A program made the translations under genes and the position numbers. A stretch of DNA of 36,091 nucleotides from a virus. The notes under the pieces were generated by a model. The model was given only the letters and a program-made list of their open reading frames with translations, was not told the DNA's origin and did not search any database. Shown piece by piece: positions 12,011 through 30,293 of the stretch; within the stretch, counting starts at the first letter, position 1; each line of letters opens with the position of its first letter. The stretch spans positions 1 through 36,091 of the IMG/VR virus record IMGVR_UViG_3300045988_081375. One strand, 5' to 3'.

Positions 12011-13162
12011 TTACGTTGCTTGTCGCAATTTTGCGTTCAAATGTTCGTTAAATTTATCAATATTTTTTGCCTTGTAAGTCTTGTCTAAGTGCGTGTAAAT
12101 TTTGAGGGTTGTGGATATATCCTTGTGGCCTGCCTGCTCTTTTGCTGTCATAATATCCACCCCTGCAAGATACATCAAGGTTATAAATGTATGACGTAAG
12201 CAGTGGGCTGTGAAAGGTTCAATCACGAACGGAACACCACCGGGCTGAAAACGGCTTGTCGGTTTGTCGGATAATGTGTTATCAAAATTGCCGTGCTCAT
12301 AGTTCAGGACGGACATATAACTTTCCCACATTCTGCGCCAGGACGTGTTGCTGTGCATCTTGTCATTTGCAGTCCGGCATACGAGAAAGCCGTCATGCTC
12401 CGCACCTTTCAGATAGTCAACGAGCACATCGGGAATATAGACAATTCGTTTTGCGCTTTCGGACTTGCCGTAGTTTTTGACTTTAGCCTGATTGCCTGAG
12501 AACTCTACAAATCGTGCTACCTTGATAGTTTTGCCGCTAAGGTCAATATCATTCCATTGAAGCGGTATAAGCTCGCTCTTTCGTAACCCGGCATACATCA
12601 TGATCATTGCAGCAGTCTGGGCTCTGTGGGGCGTAGTTCTTATCCACTCCTGCTCTTCATCGGTCAGAGCACGGCGCTCCTCCGCAGGCTTTACCTTTGC
12701 AGGAAGTTTTACATTCCGGAAAACGTTATAGTCGGTGGCTCTGTTCTCAATAGCCAGGTCAAGGACACTTACCGATATTTCATACACCGCTTTAATTGTT
12801 CTCTTGGAATAGTCCTCCTGAGCCATATCTATGAGAATATCACGCAAATCCGATGAGGACAGTTTTGCTATCGGAAGATTATACAACGGTTCAAGGTGCT
12901 TGTAGTAGCTCTGCGTATTCTTATACCACTGTTCCGAAACGTCGGGTTGCTTGTATTTTATCCACTTTTTGCCCCAGTAGTCGAAGGTTTCACGGCAAGC
13001 ATCAAGATCTATACCTTTACCAAGCTTGATTTTAAGCGAGTTGGACTTTTCTTCGACTTCTTTCTTTGTGTTTCCGTAAACAACACGGTATTTCTGCTTG
13101 CCGTTGTTATCGGTACCGATATAAACCGATTGCTGATAACGGCCGTCCGCACGTTTTTTCAT
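12011..13162 (-). CDS. int: tyrosine site-specific integrase
   Basis: 383 aa. The C-terminal catalytic region AHCLRHTFITLMYLAGVDIMTAKEQAGHKDISTTLKIYTHL holds the R/H-x-x-R/H/Y signature. RBS aggagg. Adjacent to the attP-like region. Confidence 0.95.
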   Translation of the reverse strand: MKKRADGRYQQSVYIGTDNNGKQKYRVVYGNTKKEVEEKSNSLKIKLGKGIDLDACRETFDYWGKKWIKYKQPDVSEQWYKNTQSYYKHLEPLYNLPIAKLSSSDLRDILIDMAQEDYSKRTIKAVYEISVSVLDLAIENRATDYNVFRNVKLPAKVKPAEERRALTDEEQEWIRTTPHRAQTAAMIMMYAGLRKSELIPLQWNDIDLSGKTIKVARFVEFSGNQAKVKNYGKSESAKRIVYIPDVLVDYLKGAEHDGFLVCRTANDKMHSNTSWRRMWESYMSVLNYEHGNFDNTLSDKPTSRFQPGGVPFVIEPFTAHCLRHTFITLMYLAGVDIMTAKEQAGHKDISTTLKIYTHLDKTYKAKNIDKFNEHLNAKLRQAT

Positions 13163-14844: not shown

Positions 14845-15603
14845 TTAATAACAACGACTGCTTACTGCAAATATGTAATCCTTCGAATAAAAAAAGAAAG
14901 GTTTTATCGGTACTTTAGTCTGCTCGTAGTTCCAACAAGCGTCAAACATTTTGTTTTCGATATCGAGTAATGAATCTACGTTAATACCTTTGCGTTGCTG
15001 TTCAGAATGTGACATCAATTGTATTTTGTCAATATCAGTACCACTAAGATACTGCCATATTTCGTATGACAAACTGGATATTCTATTTTGCACCACAACG
15101 GTAGACACATTGTACATATTACTTAGTTTTTCCGATAAATCAAAAATTGGCATTGAGTGCTCGTCAAATGTTTTACTTTCATTTCTAATTATCGGAAGTA
15201 TTTCTTTGTATGGCATAAGAAATTCAGCTGCACCCTCATTTGCAAGCCATTCAATATAACTATTTTGATTAGGTCTAGTATTTCCAAAACAATTCAAAGT
15301 AGTTCCAGGCTCATCAACAGTCAAAATGTGTGTTAGTTCATGAAATCCATGATAGTTTTGTTCGACAAACGACTTGTTTTCGTTTAATAGTATAACATGA
15401 TTCTCATCTCTGTTTTTAGCAATTCTAACAATTCCTCGCAAATCATACGTCGAAAAAGGAAGTGTTTTTATCTTAACATTCTTAAATTTCTTACATAATT
15501 CAAAAATATCAAGAGGATAATCTGAACTAGAAATATTAAACTGGACTCTTTTTTCTGCGATTAACTTATATAGTTTTTCCTTAGTGTAGTAACTAATAAT
15601 TAT
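14845..15603 (-). CDS. ImmA/IrrE-family metalloprotease (start codon uncertain)
   Basis: HEXXH motif in HGFHELTHIL. The only ATG/GTG/TTG start is TTG at 15441. However, the frame is open up to 15609 and encodes ImmA-like N-terminal sequence (PLDIFELCKKFKNVKIKTLPFSTYDLRG). Candidate ATA/ATT starts lie at 15603/15600 just after AGGAGG. Confidence 0.75.
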   Translation of the reverse strand: MIISYYTKEKLYKLIAEKRVQFNISSSDYPLDIFELCKKFKNVKIKTLPFSTYDLRGIVRIAKNRDENHVILLNENKSFVEQNYHGFHELTHILTVDEPGTTLNCFGNTRPNQNSYIEWLANEGAAEFLMPYKEILPIIRNESKTFDEHSMPIFDLSEKLSNMYNVSTVVVQNRISSLSYEIWQYLSGTDIDKIQLMSHSEQQRKGINVDSLLDIENKMFDACWNYEQTKVPIKPFFFYSKDYIFAVSSRCY

Positions 15604-15935
15604 TCCTCCTTATTGCCCTTATCTTTAAGTTTCAAAATCATTGCAATTGCCATTTCAATATCATTAGGGTCTATTCCATTGTCTTGTGCTTTTTTTGCGA
15701 AACTAAAATAAATATTATTCACTTCATTGTTTAGATTACTATCGTCACCTATCAAATCACTAACTGAGACGCACAAAAAAGTTGCAATTTCTTTTAAGTA
15801 TTTATTGTATGATCTGCTTTTTCCGTTTTTCCATGCTGAATAAGTACTTTTATCTAACCCTAGATAATCGGTGAGTTCTTTTTGTGTTTTATTTTTTTTA
15901 ATAAGCAATTCTGAAATTTTATCTATTATCTCCAT
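15600..15935 (-). CDS. XRE-family HTH repressor (CI-like)
   Basis: ATG at 15935 after the RBS aaggaggg. HTH KTQKELTDYLGLDKSTYSAWKNGKS. Divergent from the Cro-like gene and upstream of ImmA. Confidence 0.85.
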   Translation of the reverse strand: MEIIDKISELLIKKNKTQKELTDYLGLDKSTYSAWKNGKSRSYNKYLKEIATFLCVSVSDLIGDDSNLNNEVNNIYFSFAKKAQDNGIDPNDIEMAIAMILKLKDKGNKEE

Positions 15936-15968
15936 ATTTTCACCCTCCTTTTTGTTGGGATTTAACAA

Positions 15969-16193
15969 AGTTGAAAAAATAACAACTTAAAGGGTTGACA
16001 ATTGGAATAATATCAACTATAATATGCGTATACGGTTGATGAAATTCCAACTTTTCTTTAGTTCAAGTTTAGCTGACAGACTAAAGGAAAGTTTACAATT
16101 TTTAAACTTTGTTGATTTAATAGTAACAGTTTTATCAACTTGTGTCAATAGTATCAAACGAAATTTGTTGATTTGCTGAAAGGAGGTAGGAAT
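15969..16193. promoter_or_regulatory. lysis-lysogeny switch region with repeated ATCAAC/GTTGAT half-sites
   Basis: Hexamers at 16012, 16035, 16111, 16134 and 16167, plus the variant ATCAAA at 16153. An 11-bp direct repeat TTTGTTGATTT lies at 16108-16118 and 16164-16174. The inverted repeat AAGTTG..CAACTT is at 15968-15988. Confidence 0.6.
15995..16023 (+). promoter_or_regulatory. perfect consensus sigma-70 promoter for the early rightward operon
   Basis: TTGACA at 15995-16000, a 17-nt spacer, and TATAAT at 16018-16023. The -10 is bracketed by ATCAAC and GTTGAT half-sites. Confidence 0.75.
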
Positions 16194-16424: not shown

Positions 16425-17189
16425 ATGAACAATTTACAGATTTTCAACAACGCCCAGTTTGGCGAGATAAGGACAATTGATGAGAACGGCACAGTGCTGT
16501 TCTGTGGCTCGGACATTGCAAAGGCACTCGGGTATTCAAACACAAAAGACGCACTTGCAAGACATTGTAAAGAAGATGGGGTAGTGTTTCACGACCTCAT
16601 CGACAACATGGGCAGAGAACAGCATGCAAAATTTATCAACGAGGGCAATGTCTACCGCCTGATAACGCACAGCAAGCTTCCTGCGGCTGAACAGTTTGAG
16701 AGCTGGGTGTTTGACGAGGTGTTGCCAACAATACGCAGAAACGGTGCATATATGACAGACGATACACTTGAGTATGCTCTGACGTCTCCGGACTTTCTGA
16801 TACAGCTTGCAACAAAGCTCAAAGAAGAAAAAGCAAAGCGTATAGAGTTAGAAGCACAGGTTGAGCAGGACAAGCCTAAAGTGTTATTTGCAAGAGCAGT
16901 CGAAACGGCACACACATCCATACTGATAGGCGACCTTGCGAAAATCCTTAAGCAAAACGGCGTTCAGACAGGACAGAAAAGGTTATTCGAGCAGTTAAGG
17001 CAGGACGGTTATCTGATAAAGGGCGGCAATTCGCACAATATGCCCACACAGAGAGCAATGGAAATGGGATTGTTTGAAGTCAAGGAAAGCACGGTGAACA
17101 ATCCGGACGGTTCGATAAGAATAAATCGTACAACAAAGGTAACCGGAAAAGGTCAGACATATTTTATAAACAAATATATGGCGGTGTAA
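16425..17189 (+). CDS. antirepressor (Bro-N domain plus KilAC/ANT C-terminal domain)
   Basis: N-terminus LQIFNNAQFGEIRTIDENGTVLFCGSDIAKALGY...ESWVFDEVLPTIRRNGAY. C-terminus ...GDLAKILKQNG...QDGYLIK...PTQRAMEMGLFEVK. Confidence 0.9.
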   Translation: MNNLQIFNNAQFGEIRTIDENGTVLFCGSDIAKALGYSNTKDALARHCKEDGVVFHDLIDNMGREQHAKFINEGNVYRLITHSKLPAAEQFESWVFDEVLPTIRRNGAYMTDDTLEYALTSPDFLIQLATKLKEEKAKRIELEAQVEQDKPKVLFARAVETAHTSILIGDLAKILKQNGVQTGQKRLFEQLRQDGYLIKGGNSHNMPTQRAMEMGLFEVKESTVNNPDGSIRINRTTKVTGKGQTYFINKYMAV

Positions 17190-23792: not shown

Positions 23793-25399
23793 TGGAATTA
23801 AGACCGTATCAGAAAGAAGCCAAAACAGCGGTACTTTCACAGTGGGAGCAGGGTAATTCAAAAACCCTGCTCGTACTGCCTACGGGTTGCGGTAAAACGA
23901 TAGTTTTTGCAAAAATCGCAGAAGACCGTGTCCGCAACGGAGAAAGGGTACTTATACTTGCGCACAGGGGCGAACTGCTTGAACAGGCGGCGGACAAGAT
24001 ACTGAATGCATGTGGGCTTGGCTGTGCTGTAGAAAAGGCGGAAGAAAGCTGTATAGGCTCATGGTATCGTATAACGGTAGGCTCTGTACAGTCGCTTATG
24101 AGAGAAAAGCGACTTGCACAATTTTCAAAAGACTATTTCAATACGATCATAATTGATGAAGCGCATCATTCCATTTCGGACAGCTATCAGAAGATACTCG
24201 GATATTTTGATGAAGCAAAGGTACTCGGAGTTACGGCAACGCCGGACAGAGGAGATATGAAAAATCTCGGACAGGTATTCGACAGCCTGGCGTATGAATA
24301 TACTTTGCCGAGAGCTATCAAAGAAGGGTATCTTTCACCGATAAAGGCACTCACCATTCCTCTGAAACTCGATTTGACAGGTGTCGGTACTCAGGCAGGA
24401 GATTATAAGGCGAGTGACATTGACACAGCTCTTGACCCTTATCTGTATCAGATAGCGGATGAAATGCTGAAATATTGCAAGGAACGTAAAACGGTAGTGT
24501 TTCTGCCGCTTATAAAAACGAGTCAGAAATTTTGCAAGATACTTAACGAAAAAGGCTTCCGCTCTGCAGAAGTCAACGGAAATAGCATTGACAGAGGTAC
24601 TGTTCTTGCTGATTTCGATAGCGGTAAATATAATGTGCTGTGTAATTCGATGCTTCTGACGGAAGGCTGGGACTGTCCAAGCGTCGATTGCGTAATAGTT
24701 CTCAGACCTACTAAGGTAAGAGGGCTGTACTGTCAGATGGTCGGCAGAGGAACAAGGCTTTGTGAGGGCAAAAAAGATCTGTTGCTCCTTGATTTTTTGT
24801 GGCATACCGAAAGGCACGAGCTGTGTCGTCCTGCACATTTGATATGCGAAAGCCCGGAAGTCGCCGAAAAGATGACTGAAAATATTGCAAAGGCAGGTAT
24901 GCCGGTTGACATTGAGCAAGCGGAAGAAAAAGCAAAAGAAGATGTAGTTGCTCAGCGTGAGGAAGCACTTGCAAAACAGCTTGCGGAAATGAAAAAACGC
25001 AAGAGAAAACTTGTAGATCCTCTCCAGTATGAAATGAGCATTCAGGCGGAAGACTTATCTTCTTATGTTCCTGCGTTCGGTTGGGAGTGCTCTCCGCCGT
25101 CGGATAAGCAAAAGGCGACCCTTGAAAAGCTCGGTATATTCCCCGACGAGATAGACAATGCCGGCAAAGCTCAGCTGTTACTTGATAGGCTCGGCAAACG
25201 GCGCAATCTCGGACTTACTACTCCAAAGCAGATACGTTTTCTTGAAAGCAGAGGTTTTCAGCACGTAGGTACATGGCAGTTTGAAAGTGCAAGAAATCTG
25301 ATTGACAGAATAGCGGCTAACAACTGGCACGTTCCGAACGGAATAGATCCTGCAAGCTATGAACCGAAGGTGGTGAATAATTCAGATGTCGGAATTTGA
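23792..25399 (+). CDS. SF2 DEAD/DEAH-box helicase
   Basis: LRPYQ, motif I LPTGCGKT, motif II IIIDEAHH, motif III GVTATP, motif VI QMVGRGTR. Confidence 0.9.
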   Translation: MELRPYQKEAKTAVLSQWEQGNSKTLLVLPTGCGKTIVFAKIAEDRVRNGERVLILAHRGELLEQAADKILNACGLGCAVEKAEESCIGSWYRITVGSVQSLMREKRLAQFSKDYFNTIIIDEAHHSISDSYQKILGYFDEAKVLGVTATPDRGDMKNLGQVFDSLAYEYTLPRAIKEGYLSPIKALTIPLKLDLTGVGTQAGDYKASDIDTALDPYLYQIADEMLKYCKERKTVVFLPLIKTSQKFCKILNEKGFRSAEVNGNSIDRGTVLADFDSGKYNVLCNSMLLTEGWDCPSVDCVIVLRPTKVRGLYCQMVGRGTRLCEGKKDLLLLDFLWHTERHELCRPAHLICESPEVAEKMTENIAKAGMPVDIEQAEEKAKEDVVAQREEALAKQLAEMKKRKRKLVDPLQYEMSIQAEDLSSYVPAFGWECSPPSDKQKATLEKLGIFPDEIDNAGKAQLLLDRLGKRRNLGLTTPKQIRFLESRGFQHVGTWQFESARNLIDRIAANNWHVPNGIDPASYEPKVVNNSDVGI

Positions 25400-27605
25400 T
25401 TTTGACCTTAACGAAGCACTTAAATATATAAGCCCGTCAGACCTTTCCTATCAGGAATGGGTGAATGTCGGTATGGCACTCAAAGAAGAGGGCTATTCCG
25501 TTACCGTATGGGATAACTGGTCGGCAAATGACAACAGATACCATAAAGGCGAATGTGAAAAGAAATGGGAGAGCTTCAACGGCTCTTCCTCGCCTGTCAC
25601 GGGCGCTACCATAGTTCAGATGGCTAAGGACAGAGGAATGATGTTCGGCACGGGAGAAGACCGTGAACTTGACTGGGACGATGAAATATCATACGAACAT
25701 CACGATGAACACGTTGTTGTAAACAAAAACTGGATAGAGGGCAAAGAAATAAACGCTCCGACAGACTGGCAGCCTCACAGAGAAATAATCAGATACCTTG
25801 AAGCATTATTCGAGCAGAGCGAAAATGTCGGATATGTTGTGCAAAGCTACGAAAAAGACGGTAAATTCATACCTGCCAACAAGGGCTATTATGACCGCAC
25901 GGCAGGTCAGCTTATCGAATCATTGTCGCAGTGTGACGGCGATATAGGCTCTGTTCTCGGTGATTACAACACTCAGGCGGGGGCGTGGATACGTTTCAAT
26001 CCTCTTGACGGCAAAGGCGTAAAGAATGAAAACGTAACCGAATACAGATATGCGCTTGTCGAAAGCGACAATGTAGATATAGAAAAACAGCACGCAATCA
26101 TCTGCGAGCTTGAACTGCCCGTAGCTGTGCTTGTGTACAGCGGAAAGAAGTCACTGCACGCTATTGTAAAGGTAGATGCCGCAAATTACGATGAATACCG
26201 TAAACGTGTAGATTTTCTGTATCAGATATGTCAGAAAAACGGACTGTCACCCGATACGCAGAATCGTAATCCGTCAAGATTATCACGTCTTCCCGGTGTT
26301 CAGCGTGGTGAAAACAGGCAGTATATAGTTGATACAGACATCGGTAAAAACGGTTGGGATGAGTGGCGGGAATGGATAGAAAGTGTAAATGACGACCTGC
26401 CCGATACCGAGAGCATGGCTGATGCGTGGAACAATCTTCCGGAACTTGCACCGCCACTTATTGATGGTATACTCAGACAGGGACATAAAATGCTTATCGC
26501 AGGACCGTCAAAGGCGGGTAAGTCGTATGCTCTTATAGAAATGTGCTGTGCAATAGCGGAAGGCAAAGAATGGCTTGGCTGGAACTGTACCAAAGGTAGG
26601 GTGTTGTATGTAAATCTTGAGCTTGACAGGGCTTCTTGCCTGCACCGTTTCAAAGATGTATATACAACACTTGGCTGGGAACCTCAAAATCTTAGTAATA
26701 TTGATATATGGAACCTAAGAGGTAAGTCTGTGCCGATGGACAAGCTCGCACCGAAACTTATCCGCCGTGCGAGCAAGAAGAACTATATCGCCATTATCAT
26801 AGACCCGATTTATAAGGTTATTACCGGTGACGAGAACAGCGCAGATCAGATGGCGCATTTCTGCAATCAGTTTGATAAGGTATGCACGGAACTTGGCTGT
26901 GCAGTTATATACTGCCATCACCATTCAAAAGGTGCACAGGGCGGTAAGCGTTCAATGGACAGAGCCTCGGGTTCAGGTGTATTCGCAAGAGATCCCGATG
27001 CACTGCTTGACCTTACGGAGCTGGAGCTTACCGACAGCATAATAAAGCACGAAAAAGATAAGATGACCTGTAAGATCTGTTACGATCAGCTGAAGAAATG
27101 CGGACACGAAGACGATGTTTCACAGGATGATATATGCAGTGCAAAGCAGATGCGTGAAGCGCTCAGAAACGCTGTGCCGGACGCAGATTATAAGCATGTG
27201 TGTGATTTCATTACCAAGTGTGAAAAACGCACAGAGAGCCGTACAGCGTGGCGTATAGAAGGCACGCTCCGAGAGTTCCCGAAGTTCCCGCCGGTGAACG
27301 TTTGGTTTGATTATCCCGTTCATCGTATAGACAAGACCGACGTATTAAAAGACATACAGCCCGATGACGGCAGAGCAGTAGGCTGGCAGAAGAATTTCAG
27401 CAAGAAAAAGACCGAAAAGGAACGTAAGGACGAGCGTAAAGAATCGCTCGAAACGGCATTTGATGCTTGCATGATTGACGGCAAGGTTACTTTATCCGGT
27501 ATGGCCGAGTATATGGGCGTGACCGAAAAGACGGTCCGAAACCGTATAAAAGAGCACGGCGGTTTCTGGATTGACGATAACGAGGTAGGGAAAAAGTCGA
27601 AGTGA
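25386..27605 (+). CDS. primase-polymerase / AAA_25 replicative ATPase fusion with C-terminal HTH
   Basis: PriCT-2-like WVNVGMALKEEGYSVTVWDNWSANDNRYHKGECEKKWESF. AEP-like SGKKSLHAIVKV and NPSRLSRLPG. P-loop AGPSKAGKSY. C-terminus GMAEYMGVTEKTVRNRIKEHG. Confidence 0.8.
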   Translation: MSEFDFDLNEALKYISPSDLSYQEWVNVGMALKEEGYSVTVWDNWSANDNRYHKGECEKKWESFNGSSSPVTGATIVQMAKDRGMMFGTGEDRELDWDDEISYEHHDEHVVVNKNWIEGKEINAPTDWQPHREIIRYLEALFEQSENVGYVVQSYEKDGKFIPANKGYYDRTAGQLIESLSQCDGDIGSVLGDYNTQAGAWIRFNPLDGKGVKNENVTEYRYALVESDNVDIEKQHAIICELELPVAVLVYSGKKSLHAIVKVDAANYDEYRKRVDFLYQICQKNGLSPDTQNRNPSRLSRLPGVQRGENRQYIVDTDIGKNGWDEWREWIESVNDDLPDTESMADAWNNLPELAPPLIDGILRQGHKMLIAGPSKAGKSYALIEMCCAIAEGKEWLGWNCTKGRVLYVNLELDRASCLHRFKDVYTTLGWEPQNLSNIDIWNLRGKSVPMDKLAPKLIRRASKKNYIAIIIDPIYKVITGDENSADQMAHFCNQFDKVCTELGCAVIYCHHHSKGAQGGKRSMDRASGSGVFARDPDALLDLTELELTDSIIKHEKDKMTCKICYDQLKKCGHEDDVSQDDICSAKQMREALRNAVPDADYKHVCDFITKCEKRTESRTAWRIEGTLREFPKFPPVNVWFDYPVHRIDKTDVLKDIQPDDGRAVGWQKNFSKKKTEKERKDERKESLETAFDACMIDGKVTLSGMAEYMGVTEKTVRNRIKEHGGFWIDDNEVGKKSK

Positions 27606-27870
27606 AAACTTTCATTGCGAGGGAAAATCTCGGTGATTTTCATTTTCACTGACAGGGAAAATGTCGAGAAAATTTCTTTCACTGTCAGTGAAAAAGTCGA
27701 GAATTTTCACTTTCCCTACAGAGTGAAAAAGTCGGTGAATTATCGAGATTTTCACTGTCAGGGAAAATGCTATATACTACGTATATAGGTTTTTTCTTTC
27801 CCTGACGGTCACAGGGTGAAGTAGTCGTGCGACAGCTACGCACGACGACTTCTTCCCCTGACTGTGACAA
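27588..27870. repeat. iteron and inverted-repeat array, candidate replication origin
   Basis: Six G(G/T)GAAAA(A/T)-type iterons, five of them followed by (N)TCG, at 27588, 27621, 27654, 27688 and 27723; the copy at 27761 reads GGGAAAATGCT. Four TTTCAC..GTGAAA-type palindromes include a perfect tttcactg-t-cagtgaaa at 27678-27694. Also the AT-rich palindrome ctatatac-tac-gtatatag (27771-27789) and gtcgtgcg..cgcacgac (27825-27847). Confidence 0.55.
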
Positions 27871-27907
27871 AAGCACTGATTAAAAATCCAAAAGGAGATG
27901 TTAATAT

Positions 27908-28309
27908 ATGGGTAATAGCTTGAGCTTTTTTATGCCGATGATACCGCCTACGGTAACGGCACAGGAACACAAAGTAACGGTTTCTCACGGCAAGCCGATA
28001 TTCTATGATCCGCCCGAAGTCAGATCGGCGAAGGCTAAACTGACAGCGTACCTTTCTCAGCATAAACCCGACAAGCCGTATAAAAAGGGCGTAAGGCTGA
28101 CGACAAAGTGGCTGTTCCCGAAAGAACGGCACAAAGACGGAGAGTATCGTATAACGAAGCCAGATACCGACAATCTTCAGAAAATGCTGAAGGACTGCAT
28201 GACTGTTTGCGGGTTCTGGACTGACGATGCGCTTGTCGCAAGCGAGATATGTGAAAAGTTCTGGGCGGCAAATCCCGGAATATATATCAAGGTCGAGGTG
28301 CTGAAATGA
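27908..28309 (+). CDS. rusA: RusA-family Holliday junction resolvase
   Basis: PPTVTAQEHK ... ITKPDTDNLQKMLKDCMT ... FWTDDALV, the characteristic RusA Asp motifs. Confidence 0.85.
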   Translation: MGNSLSFFMPMIPPTVTAQEHKVTVSHGKPIFYDPPEVRSAKAKLTAYLSQHKPDKPYKKGVRLTTKWLFPKERHKDGEYRITKPDTDNLQKMLKDCMTVCGFWTDDALVASEICEKFWAANPGIYIKVEVLK

Positions 28310-28503
28310 CGATAGACGAAGTTCAGCAGGCTATTGTAAGCGGTCAGACCGTAAGGCATACACACGGAGGAATAACCGCCGAATACACAATAAGCGGTGT
28401 TATATCCCGTTACAGCAAGATAAGAGGCTGGTATTATGTGCTTGAGCTTAAAGACAAGAAAGCAGACAGCTTGTCTGTTGTGAATATGGAGGAGGTACAA
28501 TGA
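28306..28503 (+). CDS. hypothetical protein
   Basis: 65 aa with 4-nt overlaps on both sides. No recognisable motif. Confidence 0.5.
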   Translation: MTIDEVQQAIVSGQTVRHTHGGITAEYTISGVISRYSKIRGWYYVLELKDKKADSLSVVNMEEVQ

Positions 28504-28877
28504 CCAAACAAGAACTTAAAGATTACCGCTACACCTGCAAGTGTATCAAGCAGCTTGAATCAGAGTTGAACGATGCGGCAGTAACCGACAGCACGCAGGG
28601 TTCGCAGAGCGAGTACCCCTATGTCAAACATAGCGTCACGATTTCCGGCGTTCCGGATAACGATACACACCTTGCCAAGAAAAGAAGACTGTCCGAACTT
28701 AAAGCACAGAAAGCAGAAGTAGAACGCTTCATCGGCAATATTGCGGACAATCAGACAAGGGATATGTTCTACTACAGGTACATACAAGGCTATACAATGG
28801 TGAGAACTGCGGTAGAAATCGGTGGAGATAACACACCCGACAGTGTGAGAATGCGAATAAATCGGTATTTGCGTTAA
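28500..28877 (+). CDS. putative late transcriptional activator (sigma region-4-like, ArpU/RinA/DUF1492-type)
   Basis: 125 aa and the last gene before the packaging module. The N-terminal ELKDYRY...I..LE.EL and C-terminal FYYRYIQGYTMVRTAVEIG..TPDSVRMRINRYL pattern is typical of such regulators. Confidence 0.5.
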   Translation: MTKQELKDYRYTCKCIKQLESELNDAAVTDSTQGSQSEYPYVKHSVTISGVPDNDTHLAKKRRLSELKAQKAEVERFIGNIADNQTRDMFYYRYIQGYTMVRTAVEIGGDNTPDSVRMRINRYLR

Positions 28878-28940
28878 TGTTGTTCGTTTTGTTCGTTTTA
28901 AGGGTGCTATAATTTAAAATGACAAAATATAAATAAATTG

Positions 28941-28969
28941 TTGACACCTCCAAAATAATCGGTTATAAT
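28941..28969 (+). promoter_or_regulatory. perfect consensus sigma-70 promoter of the second moron
   Basis: TTGACA at 28941-28946, an exact 17-nt spacer, and TATAAT at 28964-28969. Confidence 0.75.
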
Positions 28970-29000
28970 GTAGAAAACTGGTGTTTTTTTGGAGGTGTCA

Positions 29001-29876
29001 ATGATGAGTGAACAAAATGTAAAACAATCAAAAAGTGATTCTGAAGTCCAAAATAATAAAAAATGTTTTATAATCATGCCTATATCTACACCAGAGGGCT
29101 ATACAGAGAATCATTTTAAGCAAGTTTATGAGACGATAATTGCGCCAGCCGTAGTAAAAGCTGGTTATGAGCCTTATAGAGTGGATGATGATCGTATTTG
29201 TGATAGCATAATCGATAAAATATTGAGAAATCTTGTCGAATGCGAAATGGCAGTATGTGATTTAAGCTCAAGAAATCCTAATGTCATGTATGAATTAGGC
29301 ATAAGACAGGCTTACGGCAAAAAAGTTGTTTTAATACAAGATGAGAAATCTCAACCTATATTTGATGTCTCAGCAATCAATACTGTGTTCTATAATAGTA
29401 GACGCATCTATGAAGACGTTATTGCGTCCCAAAACAATATTTCAGAAGCAATAATATCAACAGCTAAAGAAGATAGTATTTCATTAATGTCGATTGCGAA
29501 TATGCGTCCTGCTACTATTGAAGCGCAGAGTGAAAATGATGATAAGCAGATTTCAGAAAAGTTGTTACTTTCAATTTTAAGCACAGTAAGAAGATTGGAA
29601 CAATCACAAGTGATGCAAAGTAGAAAATTGAATGTTCCTATTACGTCTAACGATTACATACTTGCTAGATATTTCGATTTGCAAAATGATATTGATAAAG
29701 CAATTAGCCGTCAAAAAGTTGATAAAGATGAGCTAGATTACTATCGTAGAAAAATATCATTTTTTATTAGTGAACTGCTACATGATTCAAATATGTTGTC
29801 TGATGAACAAAAAGATATTTTAGCTTCAGCTATCAATATTAGAAATAAATTACAAACTATGATTGATGAAATATAA
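29001..29876 (+). CDS. moron protein: Rossmann-like deoxyribosyltransferase/TIR-like N-domain plus helical C-domain (function unknown)
   Basis: ATG at 29001 after GGAGG. N-domain pattern CFIIMPIS...VYETIIAPAVVKAGYEPYRVDDD...CEMAVCDLSSRNPNVMYELGIRQAYGKKVVLIQDE. About one third G+C in hand-counted 60-nt lines, against about 45 percent in flanking genes. Confidence 0.8.
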   Translation: MMSEQNVKQSKSDSEVQNNKKCFIIMPISTPEGYTENHFKQVYETIIAPAVVKAGYEPYRVDDDRICDSIIDKILRNLVECEMAVCDLSSRNPNVMYELGIRQAYGKKVVLIQDEKSQPIFDVSAINTVFYNSRRIYEDVIASQNNISEAIISTAKEDSISLMSIANMRPATIEAQSENDDKQISEKLLLSILSTVRRLEQSQVMQSRKLNVPITSNDYILARYFDLQNDIDKAISRQKVDKDELDYYRRKISFFISELLHDSNMLSDEQKDILASAINIRNKLQTMIDEI

Positions 29877-29883
29877 AATATAA

Positions 29884-29912
29884 CCGCTCCCTAACCGGAG
29901 CGGCTATTTTTT
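29884..29912 (+). terminator. rho-independent terminator of the second moron
   Basis: Stem ccgctcc/ggagcgg with loop ctaacc, followed by ctaTTTTTT. Confidence 0.7.
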
Positions 29913-29939
29913 ATACCCAAAAGAAAGGACGGTGTTACC

Positions 29940-30293
29940 GTGACCGAAAGACAGAAGAAATTCGCCGAATATTACGCTCAGTGCGGTAACGCCGCCCAGA
30001 GTGCAATACAGGCAGGATACAGCAAAAAGTATGCAAATACTAATGCTTCAAAATTACTACAAAATACTACAATTACGGAATACATAAAACAGCTCACCGA
30101 AGACGCCCAGACTGCACGCATAATGACCGCCTGCGAACGGCAAGCTTTGTTATCCGATATAGCTAAGGATAAACAGAACGAGCTGTCGGACAGGATACGG
30201 GCAATAGACACGCTGAATAAGATGACGGGGGAGTACACGCAGAAGGTCAGCATTGACGGAGATGTGGGAGTGAAGATAGTTGACGACTGTTAA
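29940..30293 (+). CDS. terS: terminase small subunit (Terminase_2 type)
   Basis: GTG start. RQKKFAEYYAQCGNAAQSAIQAGYSKKYANTNASKLLQN is the classic small-terminase HTH. Confidence 0.85.
   Translation: MTERQKKFAEYYAQCGNAAQSAIQAGYSKKYANTNASKLLQNTTITEYIKQLTEDAQTARIMTACERQALLSDIAKDKQNELSDRIRAIDTLNKMTGEYTQKVSIDGDVGVKIVDDC

Follow-up and report, generated by a model that had tools for sequence, protein, structure and literature searches.

The window analysed here is a 36,091-nt stretch of phage DNA (IMG/VR record IMGVR_UViG_3300045988_081375), and all of the features described below lie on its forward strand. The locus of interest is bounded on the left by a gene for a RinA-like late transcriptional regulator of 125 aa (28500-28877), which matches phrog_36 'transcriptional regulator' at 3.8e-13 and TIGR01636 phage_rinA at 3.2e-6, a value below the family cutoff. 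Of the lytic genes that precede the insertion described below it is the last, and it is a putative source of read-through. It is followed by a conserved intergenic element of the phage backbone (28878-28913) that comprises direct repeats, TGTTGTTCGTTTTGTTCGTTTT, and then an extended -10 (TGcTATAAT, 28905-28913). In diverged relatives the element shows 1-3 differences in 54 nt, and the final 90 nt of the regulator gene 12-24. On the right the locus is bounded by terS (29940-30293; PF03592, 5.6e-22), which encodes the small terminase subunit and is the first late gene downstream; some 30 nt upstream of it stands an intrinsic terminator, CCGCTCCCTAACCGGAGCGG followed by a T-run (29884-29910, stem 29884-29903). 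Between the two lies an open reading frame of 291 codons, counted from the ATG at 29001 (29001-29876), where GC content drops from ~47% to ~30%.

Comparison with related phages reveals this reading frame to be the cargo of a ~935-bp insertion between the RinA-like regulator and terS. The site is empty in four relatives (L177, L179, L189 and L190) and occupied by alternative cargos in three others (L174, L182 and L188): the segment is thus present or absent at one locus among close relatives, as expected of a moron, the concept defined for HK97 and lambda-like phages. Its base composition is likewise that of a moron, with GC of ~29-35% over 28900-29900 against 45-52% in the flanks. The left junction falls at ~28942-28945. 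Neither terminal inverted repeats nor a target-site duplication was seen at the junctions when these were compared with the empty-site relatives, and recombination between phage backbones, not transposition, seems to be how the element moves. The insertion brings a promoter-like site with it. The terminator is another matter: the empty-site relatives have it too, 52 nt past the conserved element, so that the stem at 29884-29903 belongs to the phage backbone and is not the moron's own.

The N-terminal domain of the cargo protein resembles nucleoside 2-deoxyribosyltransferase, DNPH1 or TIR, and its C-terminal part is helical. It matches a PADLOC TIR effector (1.9e-5) and phrog_3634, and homologues match PF05014; Foldseek comparison of a structural model (mean pLDDT 70) returned MilB, DNPH1, NDT and TIR-STING. 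A PDB sequence search gave nothing significant, and the comparison of folds was alone informative. Taken together, the matches and the model make the cargo a candidate anti-phage effector. The protein occurs on 456 contigs. One homologue, truncated and with 85% identity across 64% of the query, belongs to a cluster named from a [Eubacterium] siraeum MAG.

Directly upstream of the cargo is the moron promoter, TTGACA-17-TATAAT (28941-28969), with its -35 at 28941-28946 and its -10 at 28964-28969. It agrees with the consensus at 12 of 12 positions and is the one such match between 27500 and 30500. Two in-frame ATGs follow, at 29001 and 29004, the second conserved in all relatives. The initial annotation had described a 15-bp perfect inverted repeat across this region, and its description proved exact: TTGACACCTCCAAAA (28941-28955) and TTTTGGAGGTGTCAA (28987-29001) are exact reverse complements of each other, the left arm holds the -35 hexamer, the 31-nt loop holds the -10, and the right arm holds GGAGG (28991-28995) together with the A of the first ATG. 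In a repeat search the match lengthened to 18 nt at 94%. The start of the left arm coincides with the left junction of the insertion or is no more than a few bases away from it. The window was re-created 40 times with a first-order Markov model; the maximum length of a perfect inverted repeat with a loop of 3-60 nt was then mostly 9-11 bp, once 14 bp and in no case 15 bp, and a repeat of the observed length is therefore not expected by chance. A role for the repeat as an intrinsic terminator was considered and rejected, given its 31-nt loop, the AUGAGUGAAC without a U-run after the stem, and its absence from the terminator scan.

Which transcripts would contain both arms depends on where they start. 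From the geometry of the promoter, its own transcript would begin at ~28975-28977, downstream of the left arm; since that arm lies within the -35 and the spacer, the predicted transcript lacks it. The operon upstream is co-oriented with the moron, and the terminator scan predicted no terminator between 28877 and 28941. The conserved element at 28878-28913 also occurs in the empty-site phages and may serve as a late or leader promoter; RNA made from it would carry both arms. With the cargo placed between this element and the backbone terminator, and no terminator at 28877-28941, lytic transcripts should traverse the cargo. Late transcripts may start at the extended -10 that precedes the insertion, or shortly before terS, as they do in phi11 (PMC3152322).

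With G.U pairs allowed, the stem in RNA grows to 19 bp (28937-28955 with 28987-29005), enough to take in the first AUG completely. Its 5′ strand contains TTGACA and, in the promoter spacer, an anti-SD-like CACCTCC; its 3′ strand runs through a U-run, the Shine-Dalgarno (SD) sequence GGAGG, the spacer TGTCA, the AUG at 29001-29003 and two bases of the second AUG. Minimum free energy structures place an inner helix of 7 bp within the loop (28958-28964, AUCGGUU, with 28976-28982, AACUGGU). The initial annotation had reasoned that read-through RNA should fold and occlude the ribosome-binding site, and had suggested a calculation of folding energies; the computed structures agree with it. In read-through RNA the hairpin has a predicted energy of ~-30 kcal/mol and the SD and AUG are paired with a probability of ~1. 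For read-through RNAs of 120-400 nt the predicted cost of opening the SD-AUG region is 20-25 kcal/mol; for the RNA that starts at the moron's own promoter it is 4.2-8.9 kcal/mol. When the region upstream of the start was shuffled, the cost fell to 6.8 +/- 2.0, and none of 100 shuffles reached the observed 19.3. Strong occlusion is thus predicted for read-through RNA only. The companion claim, that the ribosome-binding site is free in own-promoter RNA, holds in part: the left arm is confined to the -35 and spacer and the predicted opening cost is low, but this RNA can pair weakly with a downstream sequence, TCCAAAATAA (29047-29056), and hence its ribosome site is not fully open.

The same promoter and 5′UTR module stands upstream of three cargos: the TIR/NDT-like gene of the window (cargo 1), DUF6731/PDC-M67A with a membrane protein (cargo 2), and LAPAL/PDC-S42 (cargo 3). 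With a probe made from the loop only, 15 variants of the module were gathered. Pairing across them is 100% in both the 11-bp core and the inner helix, the latter with one change from G.U to A-U. Four substitutions fall on paired positions (C to U twice, A to G, and G to A), and after each of them the bases still pair. Three of the four stem substitutions destroy the symmetry of the DNA, and the variants concerned, CTTCC, CCTTC and GGGGG, retain pairing through G.U.

These variants bear directly on the possibility that the repeat functions as DNA, raised in the initial annotation as a dimeric operator or a cruciform: the arms could be inverted sites for a dimeric or tetrameric regulator around the -10, or the repeat could extrude as a cruciform that inactivates the promoter. 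The repeat in the window is indeed a perfect dyad whose arms flank the -10. Moreover, searches with both-arm and left-arm-only patterns, which otherwise found matches only in this phage family, located the same 16-nt sequence in an unrelated jumbo phage, where it forms a tight palindrome and is apparently a DNA site upstream of sigma-54-like promoters; we rejected this match as coincidental. A DNA-level function nevertheless seems very improbable. Natural variants give up the dyad and keep the RNA pairing, the modules of cargos 2 and 3 lack the TGTCAA half of the right arm, and the arms, whose centres are 46 bp apart, enclose a loop long enough to disfavour cruciform extrusion. Nor is there another copy of the motif in the window beyond chance (one match with three mismatches), or any in the immunity region. 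The operator was rejected on the grounds of the missing second copy and the broken symmetry.

To place the module in a wider context we examined 170 homologue loci from viral and genome collections. Most homologous morons have their own promoter and no occluding hairpin; only the lineage of the window and a second one, L098/L101, stand out. No hairpin was found in the regulator-to-terS morons of cargo 4, the L030 group, L315, L317, L319 and L321. In L007, L318 and the L030 group the hairpin is absent but a terminator stands just upstream of the moron promoter, an arrangement consistent with a different route to insulation. L098/L101 is an unrelated Lachnospiraceae prophage with a 51%-identical cargo homologue, again between a phrog_36 regulator and terS. 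Here TTTGACATGGTATAA, from the promoter spacer and -10, pairs with TTGTATCATGTCAGA, and the latter spans the start codon, on which the L098 stem is centred. The sequence is different and the design the same. The observed value for this hairpin was reached by none of 100 shuffles. Judged by its sequence, L098/L101 is an independent second instance of the design. A search for further relatives of L098 in viral contigs found none.

Not all of the evidence points to selection on translation. The stem upstream of cargos 2 and 3 is just 11-12 bp long, and in cargo 3 no ATG, GTG or TTG follows the SD of the module for 41 in-frame codons; the right arm there may not be the ribosome site of that gene. 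The 15 variants include no double compensatory change, and their covariation score equals that of the shuffled control. This test is uninformative, not negative. The module is nearly invariant across its carriers (91% mean column identity), and its conservation could reflect recent descent. Together with the many homologous morons that do without a hairpin, these observations suit an explanation in which the hairpin is a neutral by-product of an inverted micro-duplication or of a recombined promoter cassette, spread recently and with no selected effect on translation. We nonetheless regard such an origin as unlikely. The complement of each functional motif sits in a segment that is otherwise unconstrained, CCTCC within the promoter spacer and TGTCA within the SD-AUG spacer; the substitutions at paired positions preserve pairing without exception; and an unrelated sequence in L098/L101 produces the same geometry. 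In addition, whatever its origin, a stem of such stability that covers the SD and AUG should keep the 30S subunit from binding (PMC3014915, PMC4513863).

The hairpin might also act on late or leader RNA in some other manner, through RNase III-type processing, through RNA stability or by allowing passage of the backbone terminator, with occlusion of the ribosome site incidental. The 19-bp stem stacked on the 7-bp helix approaches the length of a dsRNase substrate, and the insertion lies inside a promoter-leader-terminator unit upstream of terS; a similar unit also precedes the moron of the L030 group. Such a role would also fit the retention of the module before cargo 3, where it is not evident that the right arm serves as a ribosome site. 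However, the empty-site phages and those with cargo 4 share the leader and terminator and lack the hairpin, which means that late expression does not need it, and the position of the L098 stem, centred on the start codon, is what translational control predicts. A scan of the hairpin against Rfam 15 returned no family at threshold, the best being a generic hairpin match to MIR394 (22.4 bits, with the gathering score at 60). On balance we find a processing or leader role distinctly unlikely.

The above analyses lead us to think it probable that the repeat forms the RNA-level component of a self-insulating module, which masks the ribosome site selectively according to where transcription starts, a type of control known from T4 and IS10/IS50. 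The module would consist of a consensus sigma-70-type promoter with an anti-Shine-Dalgarno strand in its -35 and spacer, a short 5′UTR, and the SD and start codon. Polymerase starting at ~28976 would produce mRNA without the 5′ strand; the ribosome site of such mRNA would be open and the TIR/NDT-like protein would be made, presumably in the lysogen. Transcripts from the operon of the RinA-like gene, or from the extended -10 at 28905-28913, would carry both strands, and in these the 19-bp stem and 7-bp inner helix would bury the SD and AUG, leaving the cargo untranslated from lytic-cycle RNA. In this scheme we infer the transcription start, the read-through RNA, the effect on translation and the logic of lysogeny and lysis. 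That translation of the cargo is limited to lysogeny, as first suggested in the initial annotation, is plausible. Silencing in the lytic cycle would give at most partial self-protection, since after induction the protein already made in the lysogen would still be there.

A broader proposal is more tentative. It is possible, if rather doubtful, that the module is a portable and self-insulating one, carrying interchangeable anti-phage cargos in the late-operon leader, the segment from the RinA-type-controlled promoter to the leader terminator; that protein is made only from the autonomous promoter and never from late transcripts; and that the backbone terminator stops polymerase coming from the moron promoter. 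If so, the reinvention of the design in L098/L101 would suggest a general rule for how defence morons adjacent to terS spare their own phage. The locus itself is a hot spot of cargo exchange inside the late-operon leader of abundant human-gut phages.

How the defence genes of prophages spare the phage that encodes them is an active question, as the cases of BstA (PMC8585504) and Tai/Ati (PMC11364771) illustrate. Such genes often encode toxic effectors, and a hairpin that depends on the transcription start would offer self-immunity without a protein. Hairpins of this kind would be readily spotted in sequence and would thus help to predict which accessory genes of phages are expressed in lysogeny only. 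For engineering in Firmicutes, the module would serve as a compact natural insulator part.

Among the systems closest in design are transposons. In IS10 and IS50 the ribosome-binding site lies within an inverted repeat, transcription from the resident promoter begins between the repeats, and the hairpin forms in foreign transcripts only. The same combination is found here: an inserted element has near its end an inverted repeat that takes in the ribosome-binding site and AUG, and the predicted start lies in the loop. Sequestration of the translation signals of the transposase as a protection from external transcription is cited for IS10/IS50 (Tn10/Tn5) in a preprint (bioRxiv 10.1101/2025.01.24.634351), and a related SD-sequestering stem is known from IS200 (PMC4513863). 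Unlike these elements, the insertion carries a TIR/NDT-like gene, not a transposase, and has no terminal repeats, and the site is also found empty or with other cargos. The module works like the IS10/IS50 systems and is not a member of them.

In its position the element resembles the prophage defence morons of Tai type, which are reported just upstream of terS, before the packaging module (PMC11364771). It shares with morons, and with Tai in particular, its absence from close relatives at the site, a deviant base composition, a putative autonomous promoter and the location just upstream of terS; it departs from morons as defined in that the terminator after the gene is that of the backbone. 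In phi80, transcription of the late operon lowers the expression of TaiA (PMC11364771). There the cross-talk stems from a non-contiguous operon or antisense arrangement, whereas the one proposed here would operate through an intramolecular hairpin that masks the ribosome-binding site.

A mechanistic precedent comes from T4, in which e, soc, 49 and I-TevI each have a promoter lying inside the 5′ strand of an inhibitory hairpin whose effect on translation is ~100-fold (PMC3014915). In both cases the promoter is contained in the DNA for the 5′ strand of a helix that covers the SD, the AUG or both; short RNAs are translated and those started upstream are not, as is predicted here. In silico, the SD and start codon of the cargo are buried in a helix of the RNA, and at the level of sequence the promoter overlies the 5′ strand, so that its own transcripts would be without it. 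The present case, a predicted one, differs in its setting: T4 is virulent and its embedded late promoter depends on gp55, while here a host sigma-70-type consensus promoter belongs to a temperate Firmicutes phage, in a portable module with interchangeable cargo genes. The logic, too, is predicted to be reversed: in T4 the gate delays expression until late in infection, whereas here the cargo would be on from its autonomous promoter and off in lytic read-through RNA.

Overlapping the start of the inserted gene is a perfect inverted repeat: reversed and complemented, TTGACACCTCCAAAA (28941-28955) gives exactly TTTTGGAGGTGTCAA (28987-29001). The initial annotation had described how promoter and start signals are divided over this repeat, and its description holds in every part: the left arm carries the -35 hexamer TTGACA (28941-28946), the -10 hexamer TATAAT (28964-28969) lies between the arms, in the loop, and the right arm contains GGAGG (28991-28995) and the A of the ATG at 29001. 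A second in-frame ATG follows at 29004. The two hexamers, with their 17-nt spacer, form the sole 12/12 sigma-70-type match within 27500-30500. When 40 Markov re-creations of the window were searched for perfect inverted repeats (loop up to 60 nt), the longest usually spanned 9-11 bp, with a single case of 14 bp; chance therefore does not account for a repeat of 15 bp.

Secondary structure predictions show that, with G.U pairs, the RNA stem reaches 19 bp (28937-28955 with 28987-29005) and wholly includes the first AUG; within the loop, 28958-28964 and 28976-28982 pair to form an inner helix of 7 bp. The isolated hairpin (28938-29004) has a predicted energy of -30 kcal/mol. In modelled read-through RNAs, which enter from upstream and contain both arms (starts at 28920, 28860 or 28700), the pairing probability of the Shine-Dalgarno (SD) sequence and AUG is ~1 and opening the SD-to-AUG region costs 20-25 kcal/mol, as against 4.2-8.9 kcal/mol in RNA from the gene's own promoter (presumed start 28976/28977), in which the hairpin is impossible. 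When only the sequence ahead of the predicted start was shuffled, the opening cost was 6.8 ± 2.0 kcal/mol, compared with 19.3 observed, a value reached by none of 100 shuffles. These energies agree with the earlier proposal that read-through RNA masks its own start signals.

TCCAAAATAAT is an 11-nt direct repeat with one copy in the left arm (28949-28959) and another within the coding region (29047-29057). In own-promoter RNA the downstream copy, which is changed in the L006-type variant, pairs with the U-run and SD, so that opening costs 8.9 rather than 4.2 kcal/mol.

The window is a temperate phage. Its minus strand encodes an integrase (12011-13162), an ImmA-like peptidase (14845-15441) and an HTH repressor (15600-15968); the plus strand encodes an antirepressor (16425-17189), a primase/helicase (25386-27605), RusA (27908-28309), a RinA-like regulator (28500-28877), the gene in question (29001-29876) and, from 29940, terS, terL and portal. 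In the immunity region (15985-16180), an early promoter of consensus type (TTGACA...TATAAT) is accompanied by five or more copies of GTTGAT/ATCAAC, likely operator half-sites of the HTH repressor. Two further inverted repeats (27643-27694 and 27754-27809) with a common motif, CACTGACAGGGAAA / TTTCCCTGAC, lie in the low-GC stretch of 300 nt that separates the primase/helicase gene from rusA; they may serve as an origin or a regulatory site.

GC content drops from ~47% to ~30% across 28900-29900. The product of the inserted gene weakly matches a TIR effector in PADLOC, and PF05014 is recorded for its homologues. Its predicted N-terminal domain (moderate confidence, mean pLDDT 70) resembles MilB, DNPH1, nucleoside 2-deoxyribosyltransferase and TIR-STING, making the protein a candidate defence effector of the nucleotide or NAD N-glycosidase type.

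Among relatives fetched via the RinA-like protein, four (L177, L179, L189 and L190) have an empty site. Here the regulator stop codon is followed by a conserved element, TGTTGTTCGTTTTGTTCGTTTTAAGGGTGyTATAAT, and then by AAAATGACAAAATATAAATAAATTGTT, AAyCT, ATAACCGCTCCCTAACCGGAGCGGCTATTTTTT, ~30 nt and terS. The window carries an insertion of ~935 bp (roughly 28943-29878) between AAATTGTT and TATAACCGC, and the terminator at 29884-29903 is therefore the backbone's. The 54 nt behind the regulator gene show 1-3 differences in lineages with 12-24 in the last 90 coding bases, a conservation suggesting that this non-coding stretch is functional. Within it are direct repeats and, at 28905-28913, an extended -10 (TGnTATAAT). 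No terminator was predicted in 28877-28941, and only ~30 nt separate the T-run of the backbone terminator from terS.

In phi11 and 80alpha the mapped late start lies ~23 nt before terS, and a terminator lies between rinA and terS (PMC3152322). By analogy, late transcription of the window may begin ~23 nt before terS; alternatively, it may begin ahead of the insertion, at the conserved element. Under both scenarios lytic RNA leaving the regulator gene would, judging from the arrangement of signals, cross the inserted gene before any terminator; both the existence and the abundance of such read-through RNA are inferred.

The empty-site relatives share an order of RinA-like gene, extended -10 element, ~45-nt leader, strong intrinsic terminator and, ~30 nt on, terS (window 28878-28940 plus 29879-29910; ~2880-2990 in L177 and L190). 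This layout is like that of lambda P_R'-tR' and suggests, by analogy, late control through terminator read-through. A similar unit lies behind the regulator gene in an unrelated phage group (L030, 2248-2363). A mini-ORF, ATGACAAAATATAAATAA (MTKYK*, 28919-28936), ends one base ahead of the RNA stem and could be leaderless, because its start approximates the transcription start expected from the extended -10 element. The start region of terS (29929-29942) reads ...GGTGTTACCGTGACC with a GTG start in the window and L001, and ...GGTGTACCGCCAATGACC with an ATG start in most relatives (compared with L175 and L177).

Viral and metagenome collections were searched for the promoter and 5'UTR module with a probe, ATCGGTTATAATGTAGAAAACTG, restricted to the loop, so that the sample was not biased toward intact arms. 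All matches occupied the same insertion site; with the earlier loci added, they gave 16 distinct upstream variants, and a 79-nt module alignment yielded 15 distinct sequences. The module precedes three cargos: the TIR/NDT-like gene (stem 13-15 bp in DNA and as long as 19 bp in RNA), a DUF6731/PDC-M67A protein with a membrane protein (11 bp; ATG 7 nt after GGGGG), and a LAPAL-family/PDC-S42 protein (11-12 bp). A fourth cargo, a DUF4062 protein, has a different consensus promoter and no stem. None of the 15 variants loses pairing in the 11-bp core, CACCUCCAAAA/UUUUGGRGGUG, or in the inner helix. Four substitutions fall at paired positions (CCTCC to CTTCC, CCTCC to CCTTC, GGAGG to GGGGG and an inner-helix G to A), each leaving a standard pair in RNA; of these, the first three break the DNA dyad symmetry. 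The 15 variants contain no double compensatory changes and their covariation score equals that of the shuffled control, so that this pair-preserving variation is statistically only suggestive.

The late regulator-terS site is a cargo-exchange hot spot with at least four candidate defence cargos plus the empty state; both junctions are shared between the window (28943-29878) and L174, L182, L188 and L177. The mini-ORF is kept (five codons and stop) in module-bearing variants, one with a 4-nt deletion (TAA to TAG), and is not kept upstream of the DUF4062 cargo. The LAPAL-family cargo has no ATG, GTG or TTG in 41 open in-frame codons past the module's SD (L188 2975-3098; likewise L184, L191, L211, L212 and L217-L221). 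Family profiles align into this stretch, and its start codon may be non-canonical. In an unrelated ~200-kb jumbo phage, a tight palindrome, TTTTGGAGGTGTCAAA-N9-TTTGACACCTCCAAAA, whose arms are identical to those of the window's repeat, is present in at least 10 copies (L012 2800-14300, with 13 copies; L013, L239, L261); the identity looks coincidental. Several copies lie ~40-55 nt upstream of a sigma-54-like TTGGCAC-N5-TGCTT, and these may therefore be enhancer-binding sites.

A second hairpin emerged when 19 distinct promoter-bearing upstream regions of homologues of the TIR/NDT-like gene were ranked by read-through minus own-start opening cost. The score of L098, which comes from a Lachnospiraceae MAG and has 51% protein identity, was as high as the window's. 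Its module sequence is unrelated, yet its gene, too, is flanked by a phrog_36 regulator and terS, and its 15-bp stem pairs TTTGACATGGTATAA (promoter spacer and -10) with TTGTATCATGTCAGA (start codon included). For L098 and its relative L101, 0 of 100 shuffles reached the observed value; three stem positions differ between them, two changing G.U to Watson-Crick and one breaking a pair. Homology between the two (2423-2500 and ~595-670) starts with the -35 hexamer, which would fit a module that is likewise a unit of recombination. In L007, L318 and the L030 group a terminator lies directly upstream of the moron promoter, without a hairpin, and no occluding hairpin was found in L315, L317, L319 or L321. 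The device is thus recurrent, not obligatory.

Masking that depends on where a transcript begins, as the initial annotation proposed, is the best-supported explanation and, on sequence evidence, a reasonably probable one. The anti-SD strand would be encoded within the promoter itself, so that only transcripts begun elsewhere could close the ribosome site and block 30S binding. The benefit might be that no possibly toxic effector is synthesized from lytic transcripts, a rationale weakened by the effector that a lysogen would already contain and that would still be present once induced. Polymerases from the moron promoter would halt at the backbone terminator, which late-gene polymerases would have to get past; speculatively, this would suit a moron placed inside the late leader.

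The control principle is already established. In T4, the late promoters of e, soc, 49 and I-TevI lie within the 5' strand of a hairpin covering the ribosome site, and early read-through transcripts of these genes are translated ~100-fold less (PMC3014915). The principle is the same, but the temporal logic predicted for the window is the reverse of T4's. Sequestration in IS10 and IS50 reportedly acts specifically on transcripts coming from outside the element. Transposase initiation signals of both are sequestered in mRNA structure, according to work cited in 10.1101/2025.01.24.634351, and IS200 holds its SD in a stem (PMC4513863); the window's element would work alike, but is not an insertion sequence. 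Tai systems are defence morons upstream of packaging genes and influenced by late transcription (PMC11364771), but their mechanism is different. A word search of incomplete coverage, which does not prove absence, found no report of this hairpin design for a prophage moron. To a known kind of control, the window's hairpin adds a portable module, a hot-spot context and independent recurrence.
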